Source of the DNA: an uncultured Acidobacteriota bacterium
GTDB lineage: Bacteria; Acidobacteriota; Thermoanaerobaculia; Multivoradales; JBCCEF01
NCBI GenBank assembly: GCA_963730155.1
Contig: CAVSQV010000002.1
Span: 960,944-1,024,943, forward strand
Reading direction: 5' to 3'
DNA length: 64,000 bases
In this document: positions 2,636 to 20,446 of the stretch, one piece after another
Layout: each line of letters begins with the position of its first letter
How positions within the stretch are numbered: position 1 is the stretch's first letter
Translations under genes and position numbers: made by a program
The notes under the pieces: model-generated
Told to the model about the DNA's origin: nothing
Seen by the model: the letters and a program-made list of their open reading frames with translations, nothing else
Databases searched by the model: none

Positions 2636-2639
2636 CGCC

Positions 2640-3554: not shown

Positions 3555-3656
3555 CTGCATCGTCTCGAAAAGCTGCAGCGGAGTCGCTGCAGAGCATCAA
3601 ATAGGTCGCTGCGCTGCCATCGCGGGCGGCCACGAGCATCATCCGGGAGGAGAACC

Positions 3657-4823: not shown

Positions 4824-5033
4824 CGCCTCGGCGCCCGGCTCCACCGGCCCGGCCGTGCGGCTCCCGTCGAGTCGCCGGCCGGGCCGCTGCCGTTTGGGGC
4901 CGCCGGCTGTTTCGGCCGCCGCCGCACCGATTGCCGTGGTGCGGCATGGCCTGGTATGATTTGCCGTAGTGCGGCAAACTCGACCGACCCGAGGTCTTGA
5001 CGAAACCGGGTCTTCCAAGAAGGGGGTCCGACC

Positions 5034-6952
5034 ATGGCACACCGAGAAGTCACCGAAAAGGAAGCGATGGAGGTTGCGGAGGCCTCCCGCGAGAAGGAGT
5101 GGAAGCAGCCGAGCTTCCTCCGCGAGCTCTTCCTCGGCAACTTCCGGCTCGACCTGATCCACCCCTACCCGCTGCCGCCGACCGAAGAGGAGGAGCGGCC
5201 GGAGTTCCGGGCCTTCTACGAGGCGTTCAAGGAGCTGCTCCGCCAGGAGGTCGATCCGGTCGCGATCGACGCCACCGGCGAGTACCCCGAGTCGTGGTCG
5301 ACGGCCTGCGCAAGCTCGGCGCCTTCGGCATGAAGATCCCGAAGGAGTACGGCGGCCTCGGCTTCACCTCGGTCGAGTACCAGAAGGTGATGCAGCTGGT
5401 CGGCAGCGTCGACGGCAACGTCTCGGCGCTGCTCTCGGCCCACCAGTCGATCGGCGTGCCGCAGCCGCTCAAGCTCTTCGGCAGCCCGGAGCTGAAGAAG
5501 AAGTACCTGCCGCGCTGCGCCGCCGGCGCGATCTCGGCCTTCGCGCTGACCGAGCGCAGCGTCGGCTCCGACCCGGCGCGCCTGCTGACCACCGCCGAGA
5601 AGACCCCCGACGGCGACTACATCCTCAACGGCGAGAAGCTCTGGTGCACCAACGGCACGCTCGCCGAGCTCCTGGTGGTCATGGCCGCGACCCCGAGACC
5701 AAGGCGATCAGCGCCTTCGTCGTCGAGACCGACTGGCCCGGCGTCAAGGTCGAGCACCGCTGCCACTTCATGGGGCTGCGCGCGCTCGCCAACGGCGTGA
5801 TCAGCTTCAAGGACGTGCGCGATCCCGGCCGAGAACCTGATCGGCAAGGAGGGGCATGGTCTCAAGATCGCGCTCATCACGTTCAACGACGGGCGCCTGT
5901 CGCTCCCCAACGGCTCGGTCGGCACCGCCAAGGCGTGCCTCGAGATCTGCCGCAAGTGGTCGAACGAGCGCGTGCAGTGGGGCAAGCCGATCGGCAAGCA
6001 CGAGGCGATCGCCCACAAGCTCGCCGACATGGCGGCCAACACCTTCGCCATGGAGTCGCTGGTCGGGCTCGCCACCGCGATGGCCGACCGCGGCGACTTC
6101 GACATCCGCCTCGAGGCGGCGGCGGCCAAGGAGTGGAACACGGTCCGCGCCTGGCAGATCGTCGACGAGACGATGCAGATCCGCGGCGGCCGCGGCTACG
6201 AGACCGAGACCTCGCTGGCCGCCCGCGGCGAGGAGCCGATGCCGGTCGAGCGCGTGATGCGCGACTACCGCATCAACCAGATCTTCGAGGGCTCGAGCGA
6301 GATCATGCACCTGTTCATGGCGCGCGAGGCGGTCGACAAGCACCTCGAGGTCGCCGGCGCCCTGATCGATCCCAAGAAGGGGCTGTCCGAGAAGCTCGCC
6401 GCGCTGCCGACGATCGGCGCCTTCTACGCCACCTGGTATCCGACCCGCTGGCTCGGCTGGGGGCACTTCCCGCGCTACCGCGAGTTCGGCGACCTCGCCG
6501 GCCACCTGCGCTTCGTCGAGCGCAGCTCGCGGCGGCTCGCGCGCGCGGTCTTCCACGGCATGGTGGTCCACGAGGCGAAGCTCGAGCACAAGCAGGCCTT
6601 CCTGTTCCGCCTGGTCGACATCGCGATGGAGCTCTTCGCGATGGCGACCTCGGCCTCGCGCGCCCACGCGATGACCGAGCGGCGCCACCCCGACGCCGTC
6701 AAGGCCCGTGAGCTGGCCGACCTCTTCTGCCGCATGTCGCGCCGCCGCGTCCGGGCGCTCTTCCGCGAGCTGTGGTCGAACGACGACGTGCGCAAGTACA
6801 AGACCGCCCAGAACGTCCTCGCCGGCCGCCACGTCTGGTTGGAGTCGGGGATCATGGGCCTCGGCGCCACCGCCAGGTCGCTCCAGCCGCCGACTCCGCT
6901 CGAGAGGCGTGGCGAGCGGGTACGGGCGGCACGGCCGGTGGCCGCGGGCTAA
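5034..6952 (+). pseudogene. Long-form acyl-CoA dehydrogenase, reading frame broken 3 times (about 5290, 5695, 5820)
   Basis: A continuous ACAD sequence is recovered only by joining four frames. MAHREVTEKEAMEVAE...GEYPES | VVDGLRKLGAFGMKIPKEYGGLG...LWCTNGTLAELLVVMAATP | ETKAISAFVVETDWPGVKVEHRCHFMGLRALANGVISFKDVR | IPAENLIGKEGHGLKIALITFNDGRLSL...IRGGRGYETE...INQIFEGSSEIM... to the stop at 6952. Confidence 0.8.
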
Positions 6953-7064
6953 GACGGCCGCACCGGCACTCGGCGAAGCCACCGGCCGGGGGTTCGTTCG
7001 TGCGTCGGGTCCGCGTGCGGGTCCGGCGCATGGTATTCTTGAACCCTCAGCTTGGAGGTAACGC

Positions 7065-7361
7065 ATGAGCAGGTTCGATCTCGAACGGTTCACCACGGAC
7101 TACGAGCGAGATCCGGCTCTGGCGGAAGGGTTCGCCGAGCTCGGTGACGACCCCCAGGGTTGGGCTCGGTTGGCGCGGGAGAAGGGCTACGAGATCACCC
7201 CGGACGAGGCCGGGAGCCTGCTCTCGAGCCGCCGCGAGCTCTCCGACGACGAGCTGGACGAGGTCGCCGGAGGCTGGGACGGAGACACCACCGGCGGAAG
7301 CGGAGGCAGCGGCGGCGGGACCGGCGACGGGACCGGCGGCGGCACGGGTGGCGGCCCCTGA
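7065..7361 (+). CDS. Nif11-like-leader RiPP precursor peptide with Gly-rich core
   Basis: 98 aa, GGAGG RBS 7 nt upstream. The leader MSRFDLERFTTDYERDPALAEGFAELGDDPQGWARLAREKGYEITPDEAGSLLSSRRELSDDELDEVAGG matches the Nif11-type leader pattern, ending in LSDxELxxVAGG (double-glycine cleavage motif). Predicted core: WDGDTTGGSGGSGGGTGDGTGGGTGGGP. Confidence 0.8.
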   Translation: MSRFDLERFTTDYERDPALAEGFAELGDDPQGWARLAREKGYEITPDEAGSLLSSRRELSDDELDEVAGGWDGDTTGGSGGSGGGTGDGTGGGTGGGP

Positions 7362-8454
7362 CCAGGACCCGCTCGCCGTCTTCGGCTGGGATGCCTGGCT
7401 CCCTCTCCTCGACCCTCGGCTCCCCTCTCGGCTGGTCGATCGCCGGGCCCGCGAGTGGCTCGCCGGCGTCTCCCGCCTGGCTCCGGGCGACTGCGCGGGC
7501 GTCCTCGAGCTGAGGCTCGCCGGCGATTCTCCCGCGGTCGACTTCGCCTTCCGCCTGATCCGCCCGGACCAGGCCCGATCGGTCTCCCCCCGGCTCTCCG
7601 CGGCGCGGGCGCGGAGCTTCGTCTCGCGCTGGGCGCGGCGGGAGCCCGAGCTGGAGCCGGTCTCCTCCCTCTGGCTGGAGTTCGACTCTCCCGGCGACGG
7701 CGCCGAGCGGGAGCCGGGGAAACCGCCGGCGCCGCTGCTCTGCGCCCGGTTCGGGCGCGTGGTCGACGCCGGCTGGCTGACCGGGTCGCTGGTGCCGGCG
7801 CTCTGCGGCGAGGCGCTTTCCGCCGCACGGCGCCACATCCTCGACCGCTGCCTCGAGGCGCTCCCCGCCGGGGCGCGCGTGCTCTACTTCTTCAGCCTCC
7901 TCGGCCGGCCCGGGGAAGCGGTGCGGATCGAGATCTTCGGCCTCGACCCGGCGGCCATGGCCGCGTACCTCCGGCAGGCGGCCTCCCCGCGGGAGGCCGA
8001 GCTGGTGGACGCCGCGGCGCCCCTGGTTGCGGGCGCCGGCCGCTACCACCTCTCGCTCGACGTCGGCGCGGAGGTCGCGCCGCGGATCGGCGTCGAGTGC
8101 GGGTTCGAGCGCCAGCCGCGGCGGGAGCCGCGGTGGGCCGAGCTGCTCGATCGGCTGGTTGCGCACCGCCTCGCCGACCCGGCCAAACGCGACGCCGTGC
8201 TCGCCTGGCCGGGCCAGGACAGCCCGTGGACCGCCCCCGGCCGCTGGCCGGCCGCCGCGCTCGGCCTCGGCGGCCACGGCGTCCGCGGCCTGAGCCATCT
8301 CAAGCTGGTGCTCCGCCCCGGCCGCGCGCCGAAGGCCAAGGCCTATCTGCTGTTCCAGCACCTGCCGGCGGGGGCCGGCGCCGGTCAGGGCGCGGCTGCG
8401 ACCGGCGCCGGCAGTCCGAGTGCGCCGGCCAGCTCCGCCACCTGTCCGCGCTGA
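7348..8454 (+). CDS. Hypothetical protein adjacent to the Nif11-type precursor (candidate tailoring enzyme)
   Basis: Track ORF 7144..8454. The part upstream of 7348 overlaps the precursor gene and is Arg/Pro-rich. GTG at 7348 is the first plausible start (start uncertain). About 368 aa with normal composition and five strand-turn-strand segments separated by helical stretches. No family recognised. Confidence 0.5.
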   Translation: MAAPDQDPLAVFGWDAWLPLLDPRLPSRLVDRRAREWLAGVSRLAPGDCAGVLELRLAGDSPAVDFAFRLIRPDQARSVSPRLSAARARSFVSRWARREPELEPVSSLWLEFDSPGDGAEREPGKPPAPLLCARFGRVVDAGWLTGSLVPALCGEALSAARRHILDRCLEALPAGARVLYFFSLLGRPGEAVRIEIFGLDPAAMAAYLRQAASPREAELVDAAAPLVAGAGRYHLSLDVGAEVAPRIGVECGFERQPRREPRWAELLDRLVAHRLADPAKRDAVLAWPGQDSPWTAPGRWPAAALGLGGHGVRGLSHLKLVLRPGRAPKAKAYLLFQHLPAGAGAGQGAAATGAGSPSAPASSATCPR

Positions 8455-10010
8455 GCCGCCAGGCCGAGCCCCGCGAAGGTCCGGTCGGCCTCGCCGAGCC
8501 TGGCGGCGGCGAGGTCGCGATCGCCCGCGGCGTGGGCCAGGCGGGCGAGGTCGAGCCGGGTCCAGGCGAGCTGGAACGGCGCCTCGATCGAGGCGAAGGT
8601 CGCCTCGGCCTCGCCCAGGCGCGCGGCGGCCTCGTCGCGGTCGCCGCCCGCCAGCGCAATCCGTCCCAGGGCGCGCAGCGCCAGCCCGGCGCCGTACGGG
8701 AAGCCGGCCTCGCGGGCGATCTCGTGCCCCTCGGTCCCGGCCTCGCGGGCCTCCTCGGGGCTGCCGGCGGCGAGGTGAGCCTCGGCGAGGAAGGCCGCGA
8801 ACCAGGCCTGGAGCTGCCGCATGCCGGTGCCGGCGAGGCGTGCGCCGGCCTCGCGCAGGGAGCCGATCGCCGCCCGGGCGTCGCCCTGGGCAAGGTAGGC
8901 GAAACCGAGGAATCCGGTCGCGACGGCGGTGTTGAGTGGATCCCTCGAGCGCTCGACGCCGCGCCGGCAGAACTCGACCGCCTCGTCGAGCCTCCCCTCG
9001 CAGGCGTGGAGATGGCCGATGCTCCACGAGGCGTCGAGGCGGTAGTCGTCGAGCGCCTCACCGATCGCGCAGGCGCGGTGGAACGCCCCGAGCGCCTGCT
9101 CGAGCTGGCCGAGGGCGAAGTGGTGGAAGCCGGCCACCCAGTAGGCCTGCCCCTGCCACCAGGGCTCGGCGCTACGCTCGAGCAGGACCACCGCGCGCAG
9201 GCTCTGCTCGAGCCCGGCCGATCCCTGCCCGGTCCAGAAGGCGACCCGGCCGAGGACGTAGCGGGCCTTGCCCTCGGTGGCCTCGTCGCCGCCCTGCTGC
9301 GCCGCCGCGATCGCGGCCTCGGCGTGCTCGCGCGCCGCCTCGGAGTTGCCGAGGTAGCTGTGGGTGTGGGCGAGCCAGAAGTGGTAGCGAGCGACCAGCG
9401 AGGGCTCGCCGATCCCCTCAAGGTGCTCGCGGTGACGCTCGAACACCTCCAGCGTCGCGGGCAGGCGCGCGAGCGGCAGGAGCGAGTCGGCGAGCTGGAG
9501 CAGGATCTCGACCACCCGCCGGTCGCGCCCCTCCGCGGGCAGGGCGCGGGCGTGCTCGAGCGCCTCGGACAGCGCCTTGGCCGCCTCGGCGTGGGCATAG
9601 CCGGCGGCGGCCCGGGCCGCGAACAGGCTCAGGTAGTGGACGGTCTTGCCGGGGTCGCCGGCACGGGGGTAGTGGTAGGCGAGGCGGTCGTAGACCTCCT
9701 CCAGGCGCCCGGCGTGGAGCGCCTCGAGGGCCGCCGCGGCCTGGGCGTGGAGCGCCCGCCGGCGGCTCTTGAGCAGGCTCTCGTAGGCCACCGTCTGGAT
9801 CAGCGAGTGCTTGAAGGTGTAGAGCTCGCGGTCGACCTCCGGCGCGCTGTAGAGGAGCTCGCGATGCTGGAGGTCGGCAAGGAGCGGCGGCAGCGGCTCG
9901 CCGCGGTCCCAGATCCGATCGAGCAGATCCACCGACAGCTCGCGCCCGAGCACCGAGGCGAGCTGGAGCAGGTGCTTCTGGGCCTCCGGCAGGCGGTCGA
10001 TGCGCGCCAT
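8385..10010 (-). CDS. Same regulator, C-terminal part: TPR-rich STAND-like domain
   Basis: Begins MARIDRLPEAQKHLLQLASVLGRE. In another frame just upstream, DADPATVQGVLMARIDRL joins it to the 10010..11608 ORF, so one indel near 10040-10060 splits a single protein of about 1070 aa. Repeated TPR-like helices follow (YLGNSEAAREHAEAAIA..., AQGDARAAIGSLREA...). Confidence 0.75.
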   Translation of the reverse strand: MARIDRLPEAQKHLLQLASVLGRELSVDLLDRIWDRGEPLPPLLADLQHRELLYSAPEVDRELYTFKHSLIQTVAYESLLKSRRRALHAQAAAALEALHAGRLEEVYDRLAYHYPRAGDPGKTVHYLSLFAARAAAGYAHAEAAKALSEALEHARALPAEGRDRRVVEILLQLADSLLPLARLPATLEVFERHREHLEGIGEPSLVARYHFWLAHTHSYLGNSEAAREHAEAAIAAAQQGGDEATEGKARYVLGRVAFWTGQGSAGLEQSLRAVVLLERSAEPWWQGQAYWVAGFHHFALGQLEQALGAFHRACAIGEALDDYRLDASWSIGHLHACEGRLDEAVEFCRRGVERSRDPLNTAVATGFLGFAYLAQGDARAAIGSLREAGARLAGTGMRQLQAWFAAFLAEAHLAAGSPEEAREAGTEGHEIAREAGFPYGAGLALRALGRIALAGGDRDEAAARLGEAEATFASIEAPFQLAWTRLDLARLAHAAGDRDLAAARLGEADRTFAGLGLAAQRGQVAELAGALGLPAPVAAAP

Positions 10011-11608
10011 CAGGACCCCCTGGACGGTGGCCGGATCGGCGTCTCCGACGGCAGCCCGGAATCGTCGCCGAGGGCGCGGGCCAGCTCCTCGAGGAAGAAC
10101 GGGTTGCCCTCGGCGCGCTCGACGATCCCGCGTACTGTCTCGGCGCCGACCTCGCGCCCGCGCAGGGCGGCGTTGACCACCGCCTCGCTGTCGGCGGGCG
10201 ACAGGCGGCGCATGACGATTTGGCTGGCGTAGGACTTCTGCAGCCAGCGCGGCTGGTAGCCCGAGCGGTAGGTGAGCAGCAGGAGCGCCCGCGCGCCGCC
10301 GATCTCCTCGATCAGCGACTCGAGGAACTCCTGCGAGGTCTCATCGATCCAGTGCAGGTCTTCGAGCTCCATCACCACCAGATTGCGGCGGCTGGCGGCC
10401 AGGACCATGCGGCGCATGGCGGCGAAGACGCTCGCCTGGAGCGCCCGCGGATCGCCTAGGTCGCCGCCGGCGGCGTCGCGGTGGCCGAGCAGGTGGAGCA
10501 ATGGCCCGAGGTGCTCCTCGTCCCCGAGCCCGACCGCCGCCAGGCTCGCGCGCAGCCGCTCGGCGGCGGTCTCGGCGTTGTCGCTCTCGTCTATCCTCGA
10601 GGCCCGGCGGACCATCCCGATGAACGGGAAGTAGGGGATGCCGCTGGCGTAGGACAGGCAGTGGCCGCGCAGGCGGCTGCCGGGCCGGTCGTGCAGGGTC
10701 CGAGAGAGTTCGATCAGCAGCCGCGACTTGCCCGCTCCGGCCTCGCCCGCGATCCCTGCCACCTGCCCGTGGCCGGCCTCGGCCTGGCCGCGCAGCTCCT
10801 CGAGTACCGCCATCTCGCGGGCACGGCCGACGAACGGGCTCAGCTCTTGCCCCCGGGGCCTCGCGGGTGCGCCGAGGGAGCGGGCGGTGCTGAGCACGCG
10901 CCAGACCGGCTCGGCGCCGGCATCGCCCTCCGGCAGCGGCCCCAGCGACTCCAGCTCCAGCTCCGGCTCGACCAGCGCCGCGATCTCGGCTCCGGCCAGG
11001 ATCCAGCCCGGTTGCGCGAGGTCCACCAAGCGGCGGGCGCGGTCGGCGGCCGGACCGACGATGGCGCCCGCCGGCCCGCCGATGATCACGCTTCCGCTCG
11101 CGAGCCCGATCCGGGCCTCGACGCTGGGCCCCTCGTCCTCCGACTCGCGGAGTCTGCGCGTGAGTTGGAGGGCGGCCAGGGCGGCTCGTTGCGGGTGGTC
11201 CTCGGCGGCGACCGGGGCGCCGAACAGGGCCAAAAAACCGCGACCGAGGAGCTGGGTCACAGTACCGCCGAAGCGCTCGACCTGCTCGCGTGCAACGTGC
11301 ACGAACTGGTTGAGCAGAGCGTGGAGGTCCTCCGCCTCGGCGTCGCCGGAGGTCGGGGTCATCAGCTCGCCGAGCAGGATGGTGATCTGCTTGATCTCAC
11401 CCTCTCGCGCCGCCGGACCGGGCGCGGCGCTCGCCTGCACGGCCGGATCGGGCGCGGCCAGCTCGGCGCCGCAGGAGCCGCAGAAGCGCGCGCCCGACAC
11501 CGCCGCCGCGCCGCAGCGGGGGCAGGCGGAGTCCAGCGGGGTTCCGCATCGCATGCAGAACCGGGCTTGCGGGGGACTCTCAAGGTCACAGCGCGAGCAA
11601 ACCATCAT
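10010..11608 (-). CDS. Signal-transduction regulator, N-terminal part: double zinc ribbon + adenylate/guanylate-cyclase-like domain + AAA/P-loop
   Basis: MMVCSRCDLESPPQARFCMRCGTPLDSACPRCGAAAVSGARFCGSCG (4 CxxC pairs). Cyclase-like GEIKQITILLGELM...RFGGTVTQLLGRGFLALFGAP. P-loop GIAGEAGAGKSRL. Ends in an out-of-frame tail; continues in 8385..10010. Confidence 0.8.
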   Translation of the reverse strand: MMVCSRCDLESPPQARFCMRCGTPLDSACPRCGAAAVSGARFCGSCGAELAAPDPAVQASAAPGPAAREGEIKQITILLGELMTPTSGDAEAEDLHALLNQFVHVAREQVERFGGTVTQLLGRGFLALFGAPVAAEDHPQRAALAALQLTRRLRESEDEGPSVEARIGLASGSVIIGGPAGAIVGPAADRARRLVDLAQPGWILAGAEIAALVEPELELESLGPLPEGDAGAEPVWRVLSTARSLGAPARPRGQELSPFVGRAREMAVLEELRGQAEAGHGQVAGIAGEAGAGKSRLLIELSRTLHDRPGSRLRGHCLSYASGIPYFPFIGMVRRASRIDESDNAETAAERLRASLAAVGLGDEEHLGPLLHLLGHRDAAGGDLGDPRALQASVFAAMRRMVLAASRRNLVVMELEDLHWIDETSQEFLESLIEEIGGARALLLLTYRSGYQPRWLQKSYASQIVMRRLSPADSEAVVNAALRGREVGAETVRGIVERAEGNPFFLEELARALGDDSGLPSETPIRPPSRGS

Positions 11609-11755
11609 AGGGGGCCTCGGCGGAAGTCTAGCGCTATCGAGTTCCCTGCTGAAGCATACATACGCATAACCGTGTATGAGTCGATTTGCATTCTGGACTC
11701 AAATGAGTTAAGCTTGGCTTTGTCGGCCTTGACTGCTCGCAACCAGCGTTCTCGG

Positions 11756-11950
11756 ATGGCTGAGTACCCCGATCCCGTCATGACCGCCAGCATCAACTGC
11801 AACCGGCGCCTCAACCGTCTGGTGCAGGTCTCCGTCCGCCACCGGCAGGCAGCTCCGTCCACCTGGTCCTTCCGCTACGGCAAGTGCGGCGAGCACCTGA
11901 AGATCCGCGTGCGCGGTCCGCCGGAGATGACGACATTGAGCAGCTATTGA
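11756..11950 (+). pseudogene. 64-codon fragment resembling the start of a SpaB_C / thiopeptide-type bacteriocin biosynthesis domain
   Basis: ATG at 11756 to TGA at 11948-11950 (tail of track ORF 10481..11950). In MAEYPDPVMTASINCNRRLNRLVQVSVRHRQAAPSTWSFRYGKCGEHLKIRVRGPPEMTTLSSY, the W.FRY....HLKIRVRG block resembles the WFF(I)RY..PHLRLR motif near the N-terminus of lanthipeptide-dehydratase C-terminal-type domains. It is far too short to be functional. Lies in lower-GC DNA. Confidence 0.3.
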
Positions 11951-11975
11951 CAAAACCAGTGGCGACTGTTAGACC
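11947..11975 (+). promoter_or_regulatory. Candidate sigma70-type promoter for the precursor operon
   Basis: Consensus TTGACA at 11947-11952, 17-nt spacer, weak -10 TAGACC at 11970-11975, about 50 nt upstream of the precursor ATG. Sits in the only lower-GC intergenic stretch of the locus. Pattern match only. Confidence 0.25.
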
Positions 11976-12026
11976 GTAAGCAGACTGTGTCAGAACCACA
12001 GAACCTCAACCCGACAGGAGGGCCCC

Positions 12027-12182
12027 ATGGCTGAAAACACCCCCAAGACCAAGGAAGAAATGGAGGAGCGCCTCGAAGATCTGCAGCTCGATCCGGAAGA
12101 CCTCGACGCCGTGGCCGGTGGCGCGACCTGCCAGACCTGCTACAGCTCGTACCAGCCCAAGGACGTGGAGGTCGAGTCCTGA
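12027..12182 (+). CDS. Double-glycine-leader RiPP precursor peptide (51 aa, not in ORF track)
   Basis: AGGAGG at 12016-12021, ATG at 12027, TGA at 12180-12182. Translation MAENTPKTKEEMEERLEDLQLDPEDLDAVAGGATCQTCYSSYQPKDVEVES: acidic leader ending DLDAVAGG (compare ELDEVAGG in the 7065 precursor). 19-aa core ATCQTCYSSYQPKDVEVES is rich in Cys/Ser/Thr/Tyr. Lies immediately upstream of the modification genes. Confidence 0.7.
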   Translation: MAENTPKTKEEMEERLEDLQLDPEDLDAVAGGATCQTCYSSYQPKDVEVES

Positions 12183-12226
12183 GCTGACATGCCGGCAGGG
12201 CTGCGCTCACCGCGCTCGCCCTTCCA

Positions 12227-12261
12227 GTGCGGCTTCCTGGCTGATTGCCAGGAAGCCGCAC
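12227..12261 (+). terminator. Perfect 15-bp stem-loop between precursor gene and enzyme genes (attenuator / transcript-stabilising hairpin)
   Basis: GTGCGGCTTCCTGGC (12227-12241), loop TGATT, GCCAGGAAGCCGCAC (12247-12261): exact reverse complements, 45 nt after the precursor stop. No U-tract follows, so it is not a canonical intrinsic terminator. Confidence 0.5.
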
Positions 12262-12307
12262 CGGAAGCCGAACGTCTCACTTCTGGTTAGAGAGGGCCCA
12301 GACCGTC

Positions 12308-13870
12308 GTGTACGTCGACCCCGTCAACGACAGCGTTGAACGTGCGTGGACTCACAATGTTCCTTTCGGTGACTGCCGGTACATCCGTCAACGGGTGATC
12401 GACAGCGTCAGCCGGCGGCTCGATCTTGCACAGCGCTTGTTCCCCCAGGCGACGCCTGTTCTGGAGCGACTCCGATCTCTGGATGACGCGACCGCCGCTC
12501 GTGTGCTTGAGCACCCGTTCCTGCGCTCCGTGGTGCTTGCCGCAATCCGGCACCTGAAACACCCGTGGGAAACCCTTACACACGAGCAAGTCGAGCAGTA
12601 CCTCGAACAGCTCGGGATCCTGCTCGCCGAAGGCTGGAGAGGCGGGAAGCTCTACTCGCTCTCCCTGCTGCTGGAAGAAGAGGATGACGAGGGTGCGGCC
12701 CGACACAAGCTCTGGCAGTGGACTGGCGAACAGGGAGATCGGACGCTCACGGGTATTACCCCCACGGTCTTCCTGAAGAACAGCCCCAACTGCGTCTTTC
12801 ATCGTCCCACCGAGGAGGAGGCCGGGAACCTCCGCCAGGGGATTGCGCTTCTCCGGGAGCTCTTCCCTCTCCTGGCGCCCAGCGTCCTGCGTCATGTCGA
12901 TGTCATCGCACTCGTCAGTGCCAAGCCCGCTCGCGGCGAGGCCAGGCTTCCCGACGGCAACCCCCTCACTACCGATCCGCTCCTCTCCTCTACCGCCGAT
13001 ACATCGCCCGGGGTGGTCTTCGTCAGCCCCAGTGTGCTGACCAACCCCTGGTATATCGCGGAAATCATCCTGCACGAGGGCCTTCATTCGAAGCTGTATG
13101 ACGTGATGGCGACACACAACCTGCTTCGGCCGAACTACACGAATGAAGAGTCTGCCCAGATCCACCCGCTGTGGCACAGATCTTCCGTATCGTGGGATGT
13201 GCACCGCTCCCTCTTCGCCATGCACGTCTATGCCCACCTCGCCCTGTTCTTCCAGCGGGTGGCCAGGAACTTCGATGCGCTGGCACCACGCTTCGGACCT
13301 CTCCATGTCATCGATGCACGGCTGTCGATGCGCCGCTCGCTCGATCGAGCGCACTTCCTCGGAATGAAGCTGGCGGAGGTCGGCACCCGGGACCTGGGAG
13401 CCGCTGGCCAGCTCCTGCTTGCGCAGCTTCAGGAGATGCTGCTGGTGCTCGATGGCGCGTACGGAGAGGATGCTTCCGTGAATGCCGCGCCCAGGCCCGA
13501 AGAGGTGGCTCAGCGACTCGTCGGGGACCTGTATGCTCGACAGACCCTGGCGCTGGAGCGCGTCCTCGCCCACTGGCGCACGATCTCCTCGCACCCCCAG
13601 GGCGCCGGCATCCCCGCCCTCCTCACCGAAGTCGCCCAACTGGACGCCGCGCTCGTTGGGCAGGATGCGGCCATACCGCCGATCTCCGCTGAGGTCAAGG
13701 ACACGCTGAGAGTACTCATCGACCTCCGGAAGCAGGTGGCCCATCGGTTTATGAACGGGGGGGCATCGCCCAGCCGCTCGGAGATCAGCCTCGACACCCT
13801 GATGGACTCCGCCGACCGCTCGGGAAGCCTGTTCGCTCGAGCCAACATCACGATCGAACTCGACCCCTGA
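12308..13870 (+). CDS. HExxH-motif domain protein 1 (TIGR04267-like; candidate peptide-modifying metalloenzyme)
   Basis: Track ORF 12245..13870. The TTG at 12245 lies inside the hairpin, so GTG at 12308 is preferred. Motifs: VPFGDCRYIRQR, LLRELFPLLAP, NPWYIAEIILHEGLHSKLYD (HExxH), HPLWH, HVYAHLALFF. Paralogous to the next gene. Confidence 0.8.
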   Translation: MYVDPVNDSVERAWTHNVPFGDCRYIRQRVIDSVSRRLDLAQRLFPQATPVLERLRSLDDATAARVLEHPFLRSVVLAAIRHLKHPWETLTHEQVEQYLEQLGILLAEGWRGGKLYSLSLLLEEEDDEGAARHKLWQWTGEQGDRTLTGITPTVFLKNSPNCVFHRPTEEEAGNLRQGIALLRELFPLLAPSVLRHVDVIALVSAKPARGEARLPDGNPLTTDPLLSSTADTSPGVVFVSPSVLTNPWYIAEIILHEGLHSKLYDVMATHNLLRPNYTNEESAQIHPLWHRSSVSWDVHRSLFAMHVYAHLALFFQRVARNFDALAPRFGPLHVIDARLSMRRSLDRAHFLGMKLAEVGTRDLGAAGQLLLAQLQEMLLVLDGAYGEDASVNAAPRPEEVAQRLVGDLYARQTLALERVLAHWRTISSHPQGAGIPALLTEVAQLDAALVGQDAAIPPISAEVKDTLRVLIDLRKQVAHRFMNGGASPSRSEISLDTLMDSADRSGSLFARANITIELDP

Positions 13871-13880
13871 GGATTGTCTC

Positions 13881-15002
13881 TTGACGAGCTACGCCGAGAC
13901 ACAGACAGCATGGCTATCTGCGGAGAAGCAGCTGGCTCAGGACGTGCCGTTTGGCTCCGCCGACTACATCCGCGAGCGAGCTGCCGCGAGCTACCACCGT
14001 CGCCTGGAGTTGCTGGGCGAGCACCTACCCGCGGCCGAGCGGTTCGCCGAGGCGCTCGGCCCCGCCGCGAGCAGCGACTCCATCCAGGTCTTTGCGGATC
14101 CGGTCGTCCGGGGTTCCATCGACGATCTTCTTCGGGCCTTCAGGTTCGCCGGAGAGCGGAAGCCCAATGACGACCAGCTCGAGCTCTTCGCGTACTACAG
14201 CGCGCGTCTCGACGAGCTGAAGCGCGATGCCGCGGACACCGCTGACAGCTTTCGACAGGAGCTCCTCGACCGGCCGATTCGATATTGGTCCGATGCGAGC
14301 GCCCGGACGGTCCGTGACCGCGCCTTCGCTGCGATGTTGCGGCGGCACCTGCCGGGGGCGCGCGTCTACGAGGCGGAGGCGGAGACGGAGGCCGCCATCA
14401 GCCAAGGCTTGGCGCTCCTCCAGGAGCTGCTGCCGCTGGCTGCACACAGCGCCGTGTCTCATCTTCACTTCGTCATAGTCGACGAGTTCTACGACAAGGT
14501 GGGTTCCGCGACGATCGCCCCCATTCTCGGGACGATCTTTCTGGCTCGAAGCACGCTACGGAGCCCCTGGACCATCGCGGAGGGCATCCTCCACGAGTGC
14601 ATGCACCTCAAGTTCGTGGAGCTTGAGCATACGCATTCGCTCCTGCCCCGGGGTTACTCCGAGCAGGCCTCTCCTCGTCTTCATCCGCCCTGGCACCCCG
14701 AGACGGAGGCCTGGCCGATGAACCGGGCGCTCACGGCGGCCCATGTCTACGTCACCCTCGCCCTGTACTCGGTGGCCTCCGAAGCAGCGGCGCCGGAGTT
14801 TCAGGCGCGCTATGGTCCGTGCCGGCGTTCGCAGCTTCTCGTTGATCCGATCGCTGCCGGCGCACGCGCGCGCAGTCTCATCGACCTCGCGTCGGGGCAC
14901 CCCGAGAGCCTGGGCAAGGCAGGGCGGGCGTTCCTCGAATGGATGAGGGATGTCCTTGAGAAGCTGGCGGCAGGGCCCACCGTGCTGCGCAAGGCTGTCT
15001 GA
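13881..15002 (+). CDS. HExxH-motif domain protein 2 (paralog of the preceding gene)
   Basis: TTG at 13881, 7 nt after GAGGA (13869-13873). 373 aa. Motifs: VPFGSADYIRER, LLQELLPLAAH, SPWTIAEGILHECMHLKFVE (HExxH), HPPWH, HVYVTLALYS. Collinear with protein 1 but lacks its C-terminal extension of about 150 aa. Confidence 0.8.
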   Translation: MTSYAETQTAWLSAEKQLAQDVPFGSADYIRERAAASYHRRLELLGEHLPAAERFAEALGPAASSDSIQVFADPVVRGSIDDLLRAFRFAGERKPNDDQLELFAYYSARLDELKRDAADTADSFRQELLDRPIRYWSDASARTVRDRAFAAMLRRHLPGARVYEAEAETEAAISQGLALLQELLPLAAHSAVSHLHFVIVDEFYDKVGSATIAPILGTIFLARSTLRSPWTIAEGILHECMHLKFVELEHTHSLLPRGYSEQASPRLHPPWHPETEAWPMNRALTAAHVYVTLALYSVASEAAAPEFQARYGPCRRSQLLVDPIAAGARARSLIDLASGHPESLGKAGRAFLEWMRDVLEKLAAGPTVLRKAV

Positions 15003-15006
15003 GACC

Positions 15007-16155
15007 TTGCCCGTACACGAGCTGCCGGCGGTGCCCCCTGCCGAAACAGCCGCGCCCATTCCCGGCCGCGCCACGGCAGCCGCAACAGCCGAGTACGCCC
15101 GGCGTCTTCAACGGGTCGCTCGTCCTGAGCACTTCCGCGACGTCCATGGCTTGACGGTCTCGTCGATCGGCATCGGCACCTTCCTGGGTCCCGCGACCAG
15201 CGAGGCCGATGCAACCTACCGCAGCGCCATCGCTCGAGCCATCGAGCTCGGGTGCAATCTCATCGACACGGCGATCAACTACCGCCACCAGCGCGGCGAG
15301 CGGTGCGTCGGCGCGGCGGTGCGCGCTGCCTGTGAAGACGCCACCCGGCGCAGTGAGCTCGTCGTCTCGACCAAGGCCGGCTACCTGCCGTTCGACGGAG
15401 AGATGCCTCAGGACGCGAACCGATACCTGCACGAGCAGTACGGGGAGCGCTTGCAGCTCGCGCCCGACGAGATCGTCGAGGGTCACTGCATCGCTCCCGC
15501 ATTCCTGCGGGACCAGATTGCCAAGAGTCGCGTCAACCTCGGGCTTGAGACCCTCGACGTCTTTTACCTGCACAACCCCGAAGAGCAGCTCCGTTTCGTC
15601 GATCGGGCGATCTTCGAGCGCCGACTGCGCGCCGCCATGGCCACCCTCGAGGAGTCCTGCCGGCAGGGGCACGTCGCCAGCTATGGCCTGGCGACCTGGA
15701 CTGCCTTTCGCGAGAGTACGGAGCACCCGCAGTACCTGTCACTCGACGAGGTCGTCCGGTGGGCGGCCGAGGTGGGGGGGCCGCAGCATCACTTCCGCTT
15801 TCTTCAACTGCCGTTGAACCTGAAGGCACTTGAGCCCTGTATGCTCGCCAACCAGTGGCACGATGGCCGGTGGTGCACTCTGCTTCAAGTCGCGCAGGCC
15901 CATGGCATTTACATCGTCACCTCCGCCCCTCTGTTGCAGGGGCGCATCCTCGGTCGGCTGCCCCTGCCCATCAAGGAGGCCTTCGCCACGCTGTCCAGCG
16001 ATGTGCAGCGCACCGTGCAGTTCGTGCGCTCGATACCCGGAGTCGGCAGCGTGCTGGTGGGAATGAGTCGTCCCCAGCACGTGGAGGAGAACCTGGCGCT
16101 GGCGGGTTTCGCCCCGGACACCGCCGCCGTGCAGCAAGTGTTCCGGCGCAGCTGA
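15007..16155 (+). CDS. Aldo/keto reductase family oxidoreductase
   Basis: Track ORF 14950..16155. TTG at 15007 is 5 nt after the upstream stop; the ATG at 14950 would overlap by 53 nt, so the start is uncertain. AKR pattern GLTVSSIGIGTFLG...AIELGCNLIDTAINYRHQRGERCVG...VVSTKAGY...LDVFYLHNP. Confidence 0.8.
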   Translation: MPVHELPAVPPAETAAPIPGRATAAATAEYARRLQRVARPEHFRDVHGLTVSSIGIGTFLGPATSEADATYRSAIARAIELGCNLIDTAINYRHQRGERCVGAAVRAACEDATRRSELVVSTKAGYLPFDGEMPQDANRYLHEQYGERLQLAPDEIVEGHCIAPAFLRDQIAKSRVNLGLETLDVFYLHNPEEQLRFVDRAIFERRLRAAMATLEESCRQGHVASYGLATWTAFRESTEHPQYLSLDEVVRWAAEVGGPQHHFRFLQLPLNLKALEPCMLANQWHDGRWCTLLQVAQAHGIYIVTSAPLLQGRILGRLPLPIKEAFATLSSDVQRTVQFVRSIPGVGSVLVGMSRPQHVEENLALAGFAPDTAAVQQVFRRS

Positions 16156-16240
16156 CACACGACGGGCGGGGGGCGCTCTACCGTTGAGCGCCAGCGTGTG
16201 GGCACTCATCGGGCGCTCGGCTAGGAGCCCTGGATTCTTC

Positions 16241-17326
16241 ATGTCGGGTCCACTGGTTTCCATTGTCATTCTGTCGTGGAACCGGCCCAGGTCCACCCGC
16301 TCGACCCTTCGGGCTCTCGCCGACGTTCCGGCCGGCGTGCCGCGCGAGGTCATCGTCGTGGACAACGGCTCCAACGAACGAACAGGCGACGAGCTGACGG
16401 CGCTCCAGGGCCTGGGGCTCATCGATCGCCTCGTCCTGCTGCCCGAGAACCGGGGAACGTCTCCTGGTTACAACGTGGGCTTCCGTGCCGCAGATCTCCG
16501 CTCGAGCTTCTTCACTAAGCTCGACAGCGACGTCGAGATCCTGACGCCGGACTGGCTGAAGGAGCTGATCGGGCTGCTGGACGAGAATCCCGGCGTCGGA
16601 ATTGCCTCGACCGAAATCGTCAACCACGTTGGCATCCAGGAGCTGCCCGTCATCCGCCTGGAGACCGGGCACCAGGTGCGGGACTGGCAAGGGTGCCCGG
16701 CGGGAGGCGGCGGGATGACGTTTCGCCGCTCGCTCTACGAGGATGTCCGCGGCTTTCGGGAGAGCTACGGTGAAGGCCTGTTGCTGATGCCGGACGACCT
16801 GGAGTTCTTCTACAGGATCCGAGAGCGAAACCTGAAGGCCTACTACGCCCACGCCATCCACTCGCGGACGATCGACCACCTCGAGGAGAGCCCCGCCTCC
16901 TATCACGCCTTCAAGAAACGGCAGTACTTCCTACTGCGCACCCGCTACTTCGATCTAGCCCGCACCGGCGACACGGTCTTCGTACCCCACTTCGTTTCCG
17001 TGGAGGCTCTTCCGACCCTCATCCATCCCGGGCAATCGATCCATGTGCGCTGCTCCATCGCGGCGGCAGATCGACGCAGCATGGCCCTTGGATGCACGGT
17101 GGTCTCGGCGGAGACGAACAGCATCGCGGACTGTAGCGTGACCGCGGACATCCAGACCGCGGCGCCCCTCTCCGTGCACGAGTTGCCGCTCCGGATTCCA
17201 CCCACCTTGCTGCCCGGGCCCTACCTCGTGAAAGCGATCCTTTGGAGCGACCCCACCGCAGGGGTCGTTTCCGAACGCCTGGCGGACCTCGTGCAGATGG
17301 GCGAGATCACTCTCGAGCCTGGTTGA
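16241..17326 (+). CDS. Family 2 glycosyltransferase with a C-terminal extension of about 120 aa
   Basis: ATG at 16241 (codon 20 of track ORF 16184..17326). GT-A signature [12 protein letters not shown]...[13 protein letters not shown]...[12 protein letters not shown]...KLDSDVEI (DxD). The C-terminal third ([23 protein letters not shown]...[10 protein letters not shown]) is beta-rich and unassigned. Confidence 0.8.
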
Positions 17327-17396
17327 AACCGACGAGCGGGACCCGCGCCGACTCCGGCGGCCGAGCAGATCGGCGGGGAGGACGGGCGGCATCCGA

Positions 17397-20300
17397 TCAG
17401 ACCTGCTGCCGCTCGACCATGCGGCGGAAGGTGCCCCGGCCCCCGGCCAGCTCGTCGTACGTCCCAGCCTCCACCACCCGACCCCGTTCCAGCACGTAGA
17501 TGCGGTCGGCGTTCTGGATCGTGCTCAGGCGGTGGGCGATGACGATGCGCGTCGCCTTCAGGCCCTCCAGGCTGTCGGCTGACGATCTCCTGCGTGCGGT
17601 TGTCGAGGGCGCTCGTCGCCTCGTCGAAGAGGATGATCCGCGGCCGGTGGACGATCGCGCGGGCGATCAGCAGGCGCTGCTTCTGGCCGCCGGAGAAGGT
17701 CTCCGCCGCCCTCGCTGATCACGGTGTGCATGCCCATCGGCATGGCCTTGATGTCCTCCTCCAGGCCGGCCATGCGCGCCGCCTCCCAGGCGTCGTCGAT
17801 CCCCAGGTTGCGAGCTGCCGACGATGTTGGAGAAGATGTCCCCGGCCATCGGCCGGCCGTTCTGGAGGACGACGCCGATCTGGCGGCGCACCGACTGGAG
17901 GGCGAGCGCGGCGAGGTCCTGGCCGTCGAAGTAGATCGAGCCCGGCGGTCGGCTTCTCGAAGCCGAGGATCAGCCGCAGGCAGGTCGACTTGCCGGCGCC
18001 CGAGGGCCCGACCAGGGCGATGAACTCCCCGGGCCGGGCCCGGAACGAGACGTCGTCGAGGATCAGCGGCCCGTCCTCCTGGTAGCGGAAGGAGACGTGG
18101 CTGAACTCGATCTCGCCGGCCAGCTCGCCGGCCTCGGCCTTGGATCGGATCGACCTCCGGGGACTGCCTCGAGGATCGGCTGCAGGCGCTCGTAGACCGG
18201 CACCATGGCCAGCACGCTGGAGAAGATCGCCGATCATCGTCAGCGCCGCCGCCAGGAACTGGCCGAAGGCGGCGTTGAAGGCCAGGAACTCGCCGATCGA
18301 CAGGCGATCTCCTCCGGCGGAGAAGCCGACCATCGGCGAAGATGGCCAGCGAGGTGAGCACGCCGTAGACGGCGTTGAACGCGGCCTGGACGTTGGCGAC
18401 CCGCTGCGCCGCGACGGCCTGCTCGCCGCTGCTCGGCGAAGCGCTCGGCCCAGCGGCGCGAAGGCGCGCGTGCTCGGCGCCGCCGACCCGGAGCTTGGCG
18501 ATGCCGTGGATCAGGCCGAAGAGGAGGCTCGCGATCTTGCCCTGCGAGGCTCGAGGAAGCGGCGCTGGTGGCGGAGCTGGAGGTAGGCGCAGGCCGGTGG
18601 TCACCGCCACCAGCAGCGGCCACCAGGCCGGTCGCCACCAGGGCCAGCCGCCAGCTGTAGTAGAAGAGCAGCGCCGAAGCTGAAGACGGAGAAGACCGCC
18701 GCCAGGACCGAGGTCAGGACGTTGCCCGGTCAGCAGCTCGCGGATGGTGTCGATGCCCAGCGAGCGGTTCGCCAGGTCGCCCACGGTGAAGCGGCGGAAG
18801 AAGGACACCGGCAGCGACAGCAGCCGGTCCCAGACGGCGGCCTGGAGCGAGCCGTCCATCTTGCCGCCGAGGCGCAGCACCGCGATGCTGCGGGTCACCT
18901 GGAAGACCGGCGCGGCGAGCGCGGCGAGCGATCAGGGCCAGGGTGATCTGGACGAGGCGGGCGCGGTCGGCCGCCGGGATGACGTTGCCGAAGAGCTGGC
19001 CGGTCAGGATCGGCACCAGCAGCCCGAGCAGGCCGCCGCCGAGCCCCATCAGCAGGATGGTCGCGAGGTCGCGCCGGCGGCCCGCGAAGGCGAGGCCGCA
19101 GGAGGTCCCGCAGGCGCAGCGGCCGCTCGGGCAGCGGCGGATAGAACATGTACGCCTCGCCGGCGAGGCTCTCCGCCACGGCCGGCGTCGACCGGCGTGC
19201 GGCGTCCGCTCGACCGGATCGACCAGCTCGTAGCTGCGGGGCGAGGTGGGCAGCAGGGCCACCGGCCGGCCGGCGCTTCTGCTGCGTCGTCCGCGGACCG
19301 GAAGCGCCACGAGCGGGCCGTTGTCGCGGCGCCACCAGTCGTCGCGCAGGATCACCCGCCGGTGGCGGATCCGCGACGCCGCGCAGATCCGGGCGAGCCG
19401 GTCTCCGCTGGCGGCAGCTCGGCCGTCGCGTCCGGCGGGCTGCGGATGCTCGATGCCCTGGACCTCGCCGACCAGCCGGCAGGCGGCGAGCAGGGGGTCG
19501 GAGCCGGCGTCGAGCGGCGCGCCCGCGGCGGTCCGGGCGCCGAGCACCGAGGCCAGCCGGGCGTAGCGCCGTCTCCAGGGTCGGGCGGTCGAGGTCGGTC
19601 TTGCGGCCGAGCCGCTCCCGCTCGTCGCTGCGCGTCCTCCTCGCGCAGCCGGTGCGACGTAGGCGAGCAGCAGGCGGTGGAAGCGGTCGAGCCCCTCCCA
19701 GAGCGCCGCCGCTCCGTAGCAGGCGCTCGCGGTCGACGCACGAGAGGGATCCGCACCTCGCCGTCGCTGACCAGCCAGGTCTCGTCGGGGACCGGCAGGA
19801 GGAAGTCCTCGGGCGGCGAGGGCCAGGTCGTCGCCGGCCGAGGAAGCGGAGCGACCCGTCCAGGTGGCGCACCCAGACGACGCCGTCGGGCGGTGCGCAG
19901 CGCGCCGTCCCCACCTCGGCCAGGCGCACCTCGGCGCCGGGCCGCAGCTCCTGGAAGACCTTCGGCGGCCGGCCGCGGACGACCTCGCCGGTCAGCCGCC
20001 GCACCCAGCCGTCGAGCCAGCGGGTCAGCGCCGGCGGCGAGCTCCGTCCGGCGCGCCAGCTCGCGGAGGGCGGCGGCGGGCAGCCGGAGCAGCCGGGTGC
20101 CGGGGTGGCCCACCGCCAGGAGGGCGCTCCGGGGCTCGCGCGCGTCGCCGACGCGCCGCTCGACGGCCTGGAACGGCGGAGCTGCCGGCCGAGGTCGAGG
20201 CTCGCCACGAGCTCGCCGCCGTCGAGGGTGGCGAGATGCTGCGGACGCCGTCGCCCGCGCCGGCGCCGCTCCCGCCGCGCGGCGGCGCACGGCGAAGAGC

Positions 20301-20439
20301 TCGACCCGCCCGGTGCGCACCAGCCAGGCCGCTCGCGCCGGCGCCGAGCCGCAGCGGCGGGTTGCCGCCGGCCTCGATCTCCTCGCGCCGTCGGCTCGGC
20401 GAGGCAGGCGGTCAGGTCCAGGTCGGCCGGGGTGCTCAT
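17397..20439 (-). pseudogene. NHLM/NHLP-type bacteriocin export ABC transporter, permease/ATPase subunit with long N-terminal regulatory-like domain; heavily frame-disrupted
   Basis: ATG at 20439, TGA at 17397-17399. Real sequence is spread over all three frames. Recognisable pieces: [180 protein letters not shown] (Walker A), [14 protein letters not shown] (signature), [11 protein letters not shown] (Walker B), [30 protein letters not shown]. Four frame changes traced in the last 520 nt alone. Confidence 0.8.
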
Positions 20440-20446
20440 CGGTCGC

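Follow-up and report, generated by a model that had tools for sequence, protein, structure and literature searches.

A 51-codon gene that probably encodes a RiPP precursor heads a cassette of predicted HExxH oxygenases in an Acidobacteriota genome

Here, we report on a 64,000-nucleotide stretch of the genome of an uncultured Acidobacteriota bacterium (hereafter, the window) and on a small open reading frame (ORF) at positions 12027–12182 that an initial annotation had proposed to encode a precursor peptide. The 51-codon ORF is a real gene whose frame is under purifying selection, and it stands directly upstream of genes for two predicted α-ketoglutarate-dependent HExxH (aKG-HExxH) oxygenases and an aldo-keto reductase, followed in some loci by a family-2 glycosyltransferase (GT2) gene. 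We consider it probable that the ORF encodes the precursor of an uncharacterized peptide made on the ribosome and then modified post-translationally (RiPP) and heads an HExxH-oxygenase cassette that operates by the mechanism proposed below. The general kind of system is known: the pathway is a leader-dependent one of the aKG-HExxH type, and the leader ends in a double glycine. No Pfam or NCBIfam model and none of the literature searched covers the precursor family, the obligatory HExxH pair, the linked reductase or the Acidobacteriota home. The precursor gene and its signals are as follows.

12027–12182, plus strand: precursor peptide gene, 51 aa, ATG at 12027 and TGA at 12180–12182 (homologue search, alignment and substitution pattern)
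12016–12021, plus strand: Shine–Dalgarno sequence AGGAGG, 5 nt before the ATG
11947–11952, plus strand: −35-like box TTGACA of a putative promoter of the precursor gene's own; T-T-G-A-C columns invariant or nearly so in an alignment of 10 upstream regions
11970–11975, plus strand: −10-like hexamer TAGACC, 17 nt past the −35 box; TA at 11970–11971 nearly invariant in the same alignment

The ORF translates exactly as the initial annotation had read it, to MAENTPKTKEEMEERLEDLQLDPEDLDAVAGGATCQTCYSSYQPKDVEVES, and the AGGAGG element lies where it had been placed; homologous ORFs likewise carry GGAGG or AGGAGG upstream. The G+C content of the window is 72.8%, and its first 26 kb are overlapped by 179 ORFs of 40 aa or more, including a 105-aa minus-strand ORF that overlaps the precursor ORF, so that an ORF by itself is no evidence of a gene. 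Pairwise comparison of a 23-codon leader block across nine loci showed that 231 of 277 nucleotide differences fall at codon position 3, with 205 synonymous and 48 non-synonymous codon differences, the latter nearly all in two codons. These results indicate that the plus-strand frame is under purifying selection, and the conservation of the reading frame, on which the initial annotation had staked its proposal, is thereby borne out. Furthermore, the variable sites of the leader block occupy position 2 of the overlapping minus-strand ORF, and the G+C content at the three codon positions of the precursor ORF (0.65/0.38/0.81) suits the plus-strand frame. Two minus-strand candidates, at 11944–12261 over the peptide and at 12287–13744 over the first oxygenase gene, were rejected: neither matched any family, and the substitutions fit the plus frame. 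An ORF present by chance, or one for a small protein unrelated to RiPPs, with the conservation due to an RNA element, would be in keeping with the abundance of small ORFs at 73% GC and with flanking non-coding DNA that is itself strongly conserved. However, the third-position bias and the 205:48 ratio of synonymous to non-synonymous changes, the conserved start codon and Shine–Dalgarno sequence, the tandem precursor copies (two to four per locus in L007, L013, L015 and L017) and the fixed place upstream of peptide-modifying enzymes leave this explanation a next to negligible probability.

Searching 5.8 billion proteins with the single peptide retrieved 15 clusters, and an alignment query retrieved 59; an identical 51-aa protein is already recorded, without a name, in NCBI and ENA. 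Scanning metagenome contigs with the peptide alignment gave no match, and a DNA-pattern scan of metagenome contigs found only two loci. The peptide itself has no Pfam match at E ≤ 0.01 and no NCBIfam match at E ≤ 0.1. Its leader comprises residues 1–32 (12027–12122) and ends in GG, and its core comprises residues 33–51 (12123–12179), with the motif C35-x-T-C-Y-S-x-Y42 at 12129–12152 and the C-terminus ...VEVES. Across the family alignment, leaders hardly deviate from (M)xENTPKSKEEMEKALEDLQLDPEDLDAVAGG, and 57 of 59 peptides have the terminal GG. Positions −4, −7 and −12 are hydrophobic and position −8 is acidic. The window peptide has Val at −4 and Leu at −7 and −12; Asp occupies −15, and further Leu residues are found at −14 and −17. 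The initial annotation was therefore right to call this a precursor peptide with a double-glycine leader. Downstream of a spacer of 0–6 residues comes the core motif, either C-x-T-C-Y-[S/T/G]-x-Y (53 members) or C-x-G-C-Y-x-x-Y (six members), so that C1, C4, Y5 and Y8 are invariant across all 59; the remaining tail of 1–20 residues is variable and rich in P, T, E, S and G. The expectation that the GG would be conserved while the core varies thus failed: variation is confined to the C-terminal tail, the leader and the opening eight residues of the core being conserved. A C39 peptidase domain needs roughly the last 12–15 residues of a leader for recognition. The leader here is conserved far beyond that stretch, which points to a second role in docking the peptide on the oxygenases. 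Four of the precursors (P0008, P0216, P0228 and P0237) carry the Joint Genome Institute (JGI) label ‘cytochrome c556’, which is evidently spurious and was set off by the CxxC.

The genes downstream of the precursor, all on the plus strand, are as follows.

12308–13870, plus strand: HExxH-L (520 aa, start GTG), the longer of the two aKG-HExxH oxygenase paralogues; TIGR04267; motif ILHEGLH
13881–15002, plus strand: HExxH-S, the short aKG-HExxH oxygenase paralogue, 373 aa; TIGR04267 at 50 bits (cutoff 40); motif ILHECMH
14950–16155, plus strand: aldo-keto reductase, start probably the GTG near 15013; PF00248, E = 1.6e-22
16184–17326, plus strand: GT2; PF00535, E = 1.6e-14

The longest ORF for HExxH-L starts at 12245 (541 aa); the GTG at 12308 follows the 520-aa gene call and the alignment. 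HExxH-L scored 38.5 bits against TIGR04267 (E = 1.1e-9), slightly below the cutoff of 40, and is 27% identical to HExxH-S over the full length. All 24 aligned homologues of both types matched TIGR04267 (E ≤ 1e-3), and the H, E and H of the HExxH motif, together with W271, H272, W278, R282 and Y290, are invariant in these 24 sequences. Both paralogues retain HExxH and about 20 other invariant residues. PDB searches by sequence and by profile with both proteins returned nothing relevant, and comparison of folds alone worked. The AlphaFold2 (AF2) model of HExxH-S had a predicted local distance difference test score (pLDDT) of 84 and a predicted template modelling score (pTM) of 0.86, and that of HExxH-L had a mean pLDDT of 65; its core is good, but the helical extension at the C-terminus is modelled poorly. 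Foldseek matched both models at E ≤ 1e-3 to only two PDB entries, 8S5F (ChlBHExxH) and 22ob (SjiH), with template modelling (TM) scores of 0.51–0.64 normalized to the target. The best match of HExxH-S was 8S5F (E = 5.5e-8, probability 1.0), and E-values for HExxH-L ranged from 1e-9 to 3e-7 over the two entries. By profile and predicted fold, both paralogues thus belong to the aKG-HExxH oxygenase family, and their activity is predicted from this membership.

An exhaustive phmmer search with HExxH-L returned about 500 representatives, of which only three exceeded 45% identity; HExxH-S proteins are 75–83% identical among Acidobacteriota loci. In one relative, P0056 (1044 aa), two complete HExxH modules are joined head to tail, and an HExxH motif is present in either one; this natural fusion supports the idea that the paralogues work as a pair. 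The reductase has the catalytic Asp, Tyr, Lys and His, which are conserved (IDTAINY, VSTKAGY, LHNPEE). GT2 had no PDB relative at E ≤ 0.01 and gave generic GT2 matches only; its presence showed no association with core residues. Pfam and NCBIfam revealed no radical SAM gene among the window genes, and neither the genes at 12.2–17.3 kb nor the related loci contain the lanthipeptide domains LanB/LanC, LanM, LanKC or LanL. The hydroxylation and glycosylation that the initial annotation had envisaged for the core are therefore modifications that the neighboring genes, two for aKG-HExxH oxygenases and one for GT2, would predict.

Gene order was conserved as precursor, HExxH-L, HExxH-S and reductase in every locus with enough sequence, at least 12 in all. 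Besides the window, the syntenic loci are as follows.

L001, L004, L005 and L015: Acidobacteriota/Thermoanaerobaculia metagenome-assembled genomes
L002, L003, L008, L011, L012 and L018: metagenome contigs
L010: Corallococcus llansteffanensis, the locus ending at the contig edge
L013: a genome of 52% GC

GT2 follows the reductase in the window and in L001, L004 (as a 796-aa protein), L005 and L015, and is missing from four of nine informative loci (L003, L011, L012 and L013). In composition, the window cassette (11950–17330) stands apart from its surroundings, with a G+C content of 65.2% against 72–75% in the flanks and a third-position G+C (GC3) of about 0.8 against 0.95 in the flanking genes. 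It thus looks like an acquired island, which suggests horizontal acquisition of the cassette. In L013 (8913–20180), four precursor genes stand in tandem, and three of these have C-K-G-C-Y cores. The two HExxH genes come next and are followed in one direction by an aldo-keto reductase of a different lineage and genes for HlyD, a C39 transporter and a second ABC subunit; upstream, there is a Peptidase_S41 gene.

The patchy presence of GT2 bears on an explanation in which the product is a glycocin-like bacteriocin, with GT2 as the key enzyme acting on Cys, Ser or Thr, a disulfide within CxxC and the HExxH proteins as accessories. GT2, a GG leader and a peptidase-containing ABC transporter (PCAT) occur together in the window as they do in the clusters of glycocins such as sublancin and glycocin F, and Ser, Thr and Cys are plentiful in the core. 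Glycocin cores carry four Cys in two nested disulfides, whereas this core has two Cys, as CxxC. Moreover, GT2 matches generic relatives only and is optional here, whereas the HExxH pair and the reductase are constant, and there is no thioredoxin-like gene. We regard a glycocin as a very doubtful identity for the product.

Two further elements are conserved in the gap between the precursor and the first enzyme gene.

12198–12221, plus strand: first hairpin past the stop codon (GGGC-GCGC...GCGC-GCCC), kept in seven loci
12227–12261, plus strand: second hairpin, with a 15-bp stem and a 5-nt loop, in the gap between precursor and first enzyme, kept in seven loci

Both are kept almost base for base in genomes of 58–73% GC (the loci noted with them are L001, L003, L004, L007, L008, L012, L017 and L018); the first varies so little in sequence that hardly any covariation is seen. 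Neither matched an Rfam family, and an exact-pattern scan of metagenome contigs placed the second hairpin beside this cassette only. Terminator-like hairpins follow the structural genes in other RiPP operons. By analogy, the two hairpins would set the ratio of precursor to enzyme transcript, with the second presumably acting as an attenuator or a transcript-stabilizing element. Upstream of the gene, the TTGACA promoter box suggested by the initial annotation is present and is conserved, together with a TA hexamer, in other loci; a consensus promoter scanner, however, does not call the window site. At the −10 position, other loci read TAAACT, TAAGAT or TACAAT, and the TAGACC of the window is a weak match. 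Most related loci also have a 5′ untranslated hairpin, GATGCC...GGCATC, between promoter and Shine–Dalgarno sequence; in the window, 11976–12015 is without it and has a shorter CTGTG...CACAG repeat in its place.

In the mechanism we propose, the precursor would be transcribed from its own promoter, and the hairpins past the stop codon would hold its mRNA above that of the enzymes. The long conserved leader would then dock the peptide on the two paralogous Fe(II)/α-ketoglutarate oxygenases, each of which would oxidize a separate position of CxxCYxxY, the likeliest reaction being β-hydroxylation of the two invariant Tyr residues. The Cys at i−4 might capture a hydroxylated Tyr, and the NAD(P)H-dependent reductase would act on a carbonyl intermediate arising from over-oxidation or oxidative cleavage. 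GT2, if present, would glycosylate a hydroxyl or a thiol as an optional tailoring step. Finally, an ABC exporter with a C39 peptidase and HlyD and outer-membrane partners would cleave after the GG on export; in this genome, the Nif11/NHLP-type (nitrile hydratase leader peptide) cassette at 17.3–25.5 kb would take this part and would also serve a 98-aa Nif11-type peptide encoded upstream. The RiPP residues that aKG-HExxH enzymes β-hydroxylate are His, Asp, Phe, Gln and Pro; one pair, PflC/PosC, also cuts the backbone by oxidation (PMC12636437, PMC13060819). With Phe as the analogue, the two invariant Tyr residues appear the most plausible targets of the oxygenases. Both Cys-to-Tyr spacings in the core are i to i+4 (C1–Y5 and C4–Y8). 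An α-ketoglutarate-dependent Cys–Tyr cross-link in RiPPs was reportedly described by Xia et al. in 2025, as cited in PMC12636437. Together, the spacings and this cross-link make a bicyclic Cys–Tyr product an attractive, if unproven, reading. More specifically, each paralogue might act on one Tyr to give two overlapping Cys–Tyr rings, with a reductase step new to aKG-HExxH pathways and with a new RiPP scaffold as the product, a proposal that we put forward tentatively and think much less likely to be right than wrong. If true, it would make the enzymes a class-defining trio and add a new reaction type for stand-alone HExxH oxygenases.

The proposed removal of the leader draws on the following features, which lie on either side of the cassette.

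7065–7361, plus strand: Nif11-type precursor, 98 aa; PF07862, E = 4.4e-8; TIGR03798, 38 bits (cutoff 32.3)
17330–25512, minus strand: Nif11/NHLP-type export cassette, convergent with the peptide cassette and readable across all three frames only
about 24.4–25.5 kb, minus strand: outer-membrane factor of the export cassette
about 22.8–24.3 kb, minus strand: HlyD-like protein of the export cassette, TIGR03794
about 20.5–22.6 kb, minus strand: C39 peptidase/permease/ATPase (PCAT) of the export cassette, TIGR03796
about 17.4–19.1 kb, minus strand: second ABC subunit of the export cassette, TIGR03797

Haft, Basu and Mitchell are said to have described, in 2010, Nif11/NHLP leader peptides with a dedicated exporter (TIGR03798 and TIGR03794/03796/03797). 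The 98-aa ORF is of this type, as the initial annotation had it; its leader ends in ...RELSDDELDEVAGG and its glycine-rich core is WDGDTTGGSGGSGGGTGDGTGGGTGGGP. The likeness that had been noted between the two leader ends (DLDAVAGG in the 51-aa peptide, ELDEVAGG in the 98-aa peptide) is real over the last 12–13 residues: of the last 12 leader positions, eight are the same in both (L at −12, an acidic residue at −8, L at −7, D at −6, V at −4, A at −3 and G at −2 and −1). It does not extend to family membership, given that the 51-aa peptide has no Nif11 HMM (hidden Markov model) match and that hhalign aligned the two peptides with a probability of 7%, over the last 18 leader columns. By sequence, then, the 51-aa peptide lies outside the Nif11 family, and the likeness is that of a generic GG recognition segment.

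A closer tie would be that the two peptides belong to one cluster with shared enzymes, the 51-aa peptide being a shortened Nif11-type precursor. The two are separated by 5 kb and were the only acidic GG-leader ORFs that a six-frame pattern scan turned up in the window; their leader ends are alike, and one Nif11/NHLP-type exporter is nearby. However, apart from the missing Nif11 match, their cores are unrelated, a minus-strand regulator gene lies between them, and the HExxH cassette is a separate GC island that occurs in other loci without a Nif11 peptide; we consider such a joint cluster very unlikely. As regards export, the C39 peptidase/ABC exporter is, on the sequence data, most likely the route of leader removal. 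A PCAT adjoins the cassette in three lineages. In the window, the C39 catalytic Cys segment and the His segment (HFVVLEG) are both present, in different frames. Intact in L010 are a gene for a 746-aa C39–ABC protein and two HlyD-like genes, divergent from the precursor and 214 nt off; in L013, HlyD, C39–ABC and second ABC subunit genes follow the reductase in the same direction and are likewise intact. The Nif11/NHLP cassette is the sole exporter candidate in this genome and would thus be shared with the 98-aa peptide. Accordingly, the common C39 exporter proposed in the initial annotation finds its counterpart in the PCAT cassette downstream, with broken frames in the window and a presumed sharing by the two peptides.

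Several points weigh against the mechanism as we propose it. First, the window PCAT cassette is untranslatable as assembled, with several frame changes. TIGR03796 profile positions 3–49, 45–183, 183–258, 531–581, 584–649 and 648–691 fall in different frames, and a tblastn search with the Corallococcus PCAT gave high-scoring segment pairs (HSPs) in frames −3, −1, −2 and −3. The GC3 phase of the exporter region hops every 150–300 nt, and local codon bias is intact within each piece. Runs of five or more G or C number 0.85 per kb at 17.3–25.5 kb, fewer than the roughly two per kb elsewhere; an acyl-CoA dehydrogenase gene of the window is broken likewise and a minus-strand regulator is split at 10010, which together with the scarcity of such runs hints at patchy assembly indels. 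The exporter frame breaks may therefore be assembly errors and not biological. Second, the sequenced flanks of L001, L003, L004, L005, L012 and L015 contain no PCAT, and in L004 and L012 a MacB/FtsX permease gene follows the cassette instead. Third, two divergent members of the peptide family lack the GG and have VVAADPQ before the first Cys. Fourth, the reactions of the aKG-HExxH family are not predictable (PMC13060819), so that the chemistry on CxxCYxxY is a guess, and our literature search found no direct precedent for the role of a reductase in aKG-HExxH pathways.

Some of these points would be accommodated if the leader were cut by an HExxH paralogue, through α-hydroxylation and oxidative or hydrolytic cleavage like that of PflC/PosC, with the resulting α-keto-acyl N-terminus reduced by the aldo-keto reductase and the GG incidental or redundant. 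PflC and PosC are aKG-HExxH enzymes that cut the backbone at small residues and can also hydrolyze (PMC12636437). Most loci have neither a PCAT nor a protease nearby, conservation of the reductase equals that of the oxygenases with no other role to account for it, and L011-type precursors keep the cassette without a GG. On the other hand, GG occurs in 57 of 59 peptides with the canonical hydrophobic pattern, PCATs adjoin the cassette in three independent lineages, and the variable GG–Cys spacer offers no conserved small residue for site-specific α-hydroxylation. On balance, we hold cleavage by an HExxH paralogue to be unlikely. The divergent L011 cassette (2339–7306), whose precursor reads …DLAQVVAADPQ-CTTCYTLY… with Gln before the first Cys, has a pyroglutamyl peptidase (Peptidase_C15) gene adjoining the reductase; the GG-less precursor and this neighbor hint at a different route of N-terminal processing there.

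Returning to the favored reading of an HExxH-modified, GG-leader RiPP, we compared it with known systems. It has in common with the aKG-HExxH RiPP clusters (ChlBH; BpmH/BipH, biphenomycins; PflC/PosC; PesO, nitrilobacillins) the enzyme family TIGR04267/IPR026337 and the 8S5F fold, a leader-bearing precursor next to the enzyme and the expected oxidative tailoring of side chains. It differs in having two stand-alone tandem paralogues without a radical-SAM, multinuclear non-heme iron oxidative (MNIO) or P450 partner, and in the added aldo-keto reductase and, often, GT2; conservation in this core does not extend to any of the known substrates, which are His, Asp, Phe, Gln and Pro. With Nif11/NHLP systems it shares the ...L-D-x-V-A-G-G leader end, the exporter type that adjoins the window cassette and, in L013, a C39 PCAT and second ABC subunit after the cassette. 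Its leader, in contrast, has 32 residues and not about 70, lacks a Nif11 domain and fails the family HMMs, and most loci have no exporter. The GG-leader bacteriocins and lanthipeptides processed by ABC-transporter maturation and secretion (AMS) proteins or PCATs (LahT, ComA, LagD) present the same GG, hydrophobic −4/−7/−12, acidic −8 and acidic helical leader. Here, however, the leader is conserved over its N-terminal two thirds (ENTPKSKEEMEKAL) far beyond the need of PCAT recognition, which would fit a second role in binding the enzymes. The FxSxx-COOH system, the original context of TIGR04267, has the same HExxH domain family; the present cassette has no radical SAM/SPASM partner and no FxSxx C-terminus, its tail being variable. 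Judged by its sequences, therefore, the system is not a Nif11 leader, glycocin, lanthipeptide or FxSxx-COOH system. Our literature search found no description of the C-x-T-C-Y-S-x-Y precursor family, of the leader sequence or of the combination of HExxH proteins with an aldo-keto reductase, and nothing usable on SjiH/Sji.

The cassette thus defines a small, unstudied natural-product family, mostly of Acidobacteriota, with one partial copy in a cultured myxobacterium. To our knowledge, almost no natural products of Acidobacteriota have been characterized, and aKG-HExxH oxygenases were recognized only in 2024. The four small genes form a directly testable system for new HExxH chemistry on Tyr or Cys and raise the question of why two paralogues and a reductase always travel together. 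We see the locus as a clean target for enzymology, not a surprise in principle. It also holds a lesson for annotation, in that the gene at the heart of this biosynthetic island is a 51-codon ORF, too short for length thresholds to catch.

Elsewhere in the window, two long plus-strand ORFs were rejected on codon-position GC and Pfam evidence: a 925-aa ORF at 7455–10232, probably the exporter that the initial annotation had meant, is a shadow of a minus-strand TPR/AAA/cyclase regulator, and a 489-aa ORF at 10481–11950 is no gene, the real genes lying on the minus strand. There, a zinc-ribbon/adenylate-cyclase/AAA_16 ORF (10010–11608) abuts a TPR ORF (8385–10010), with a one-base overlap and in different frames, so that 8385–11608 holds either one split regulator or two that are coupled. 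Behind the Nif11 precursor (7065–8454, plus strand) comes an ORF of about 360 aa whose codon bias is good; it has no Pfam or NCBIfam match and is a possible candidate for a modifying enzyme. The broken acyl-CoA dehydrogenase gene (5034–6952, plus strand), ACAD9/VLCAD-like, is read only with three or more changes of frame, which fall near 5297, 5695 and 5820. Near the end of the window, an ORF segment at about 63600–63750 on the plus strand, caught by the GG-motif scan, consists of repeated (V/I)-x-G-G units (…GIPGGVAGGIVGGVPGGTAGGVPGGIAGGV…).

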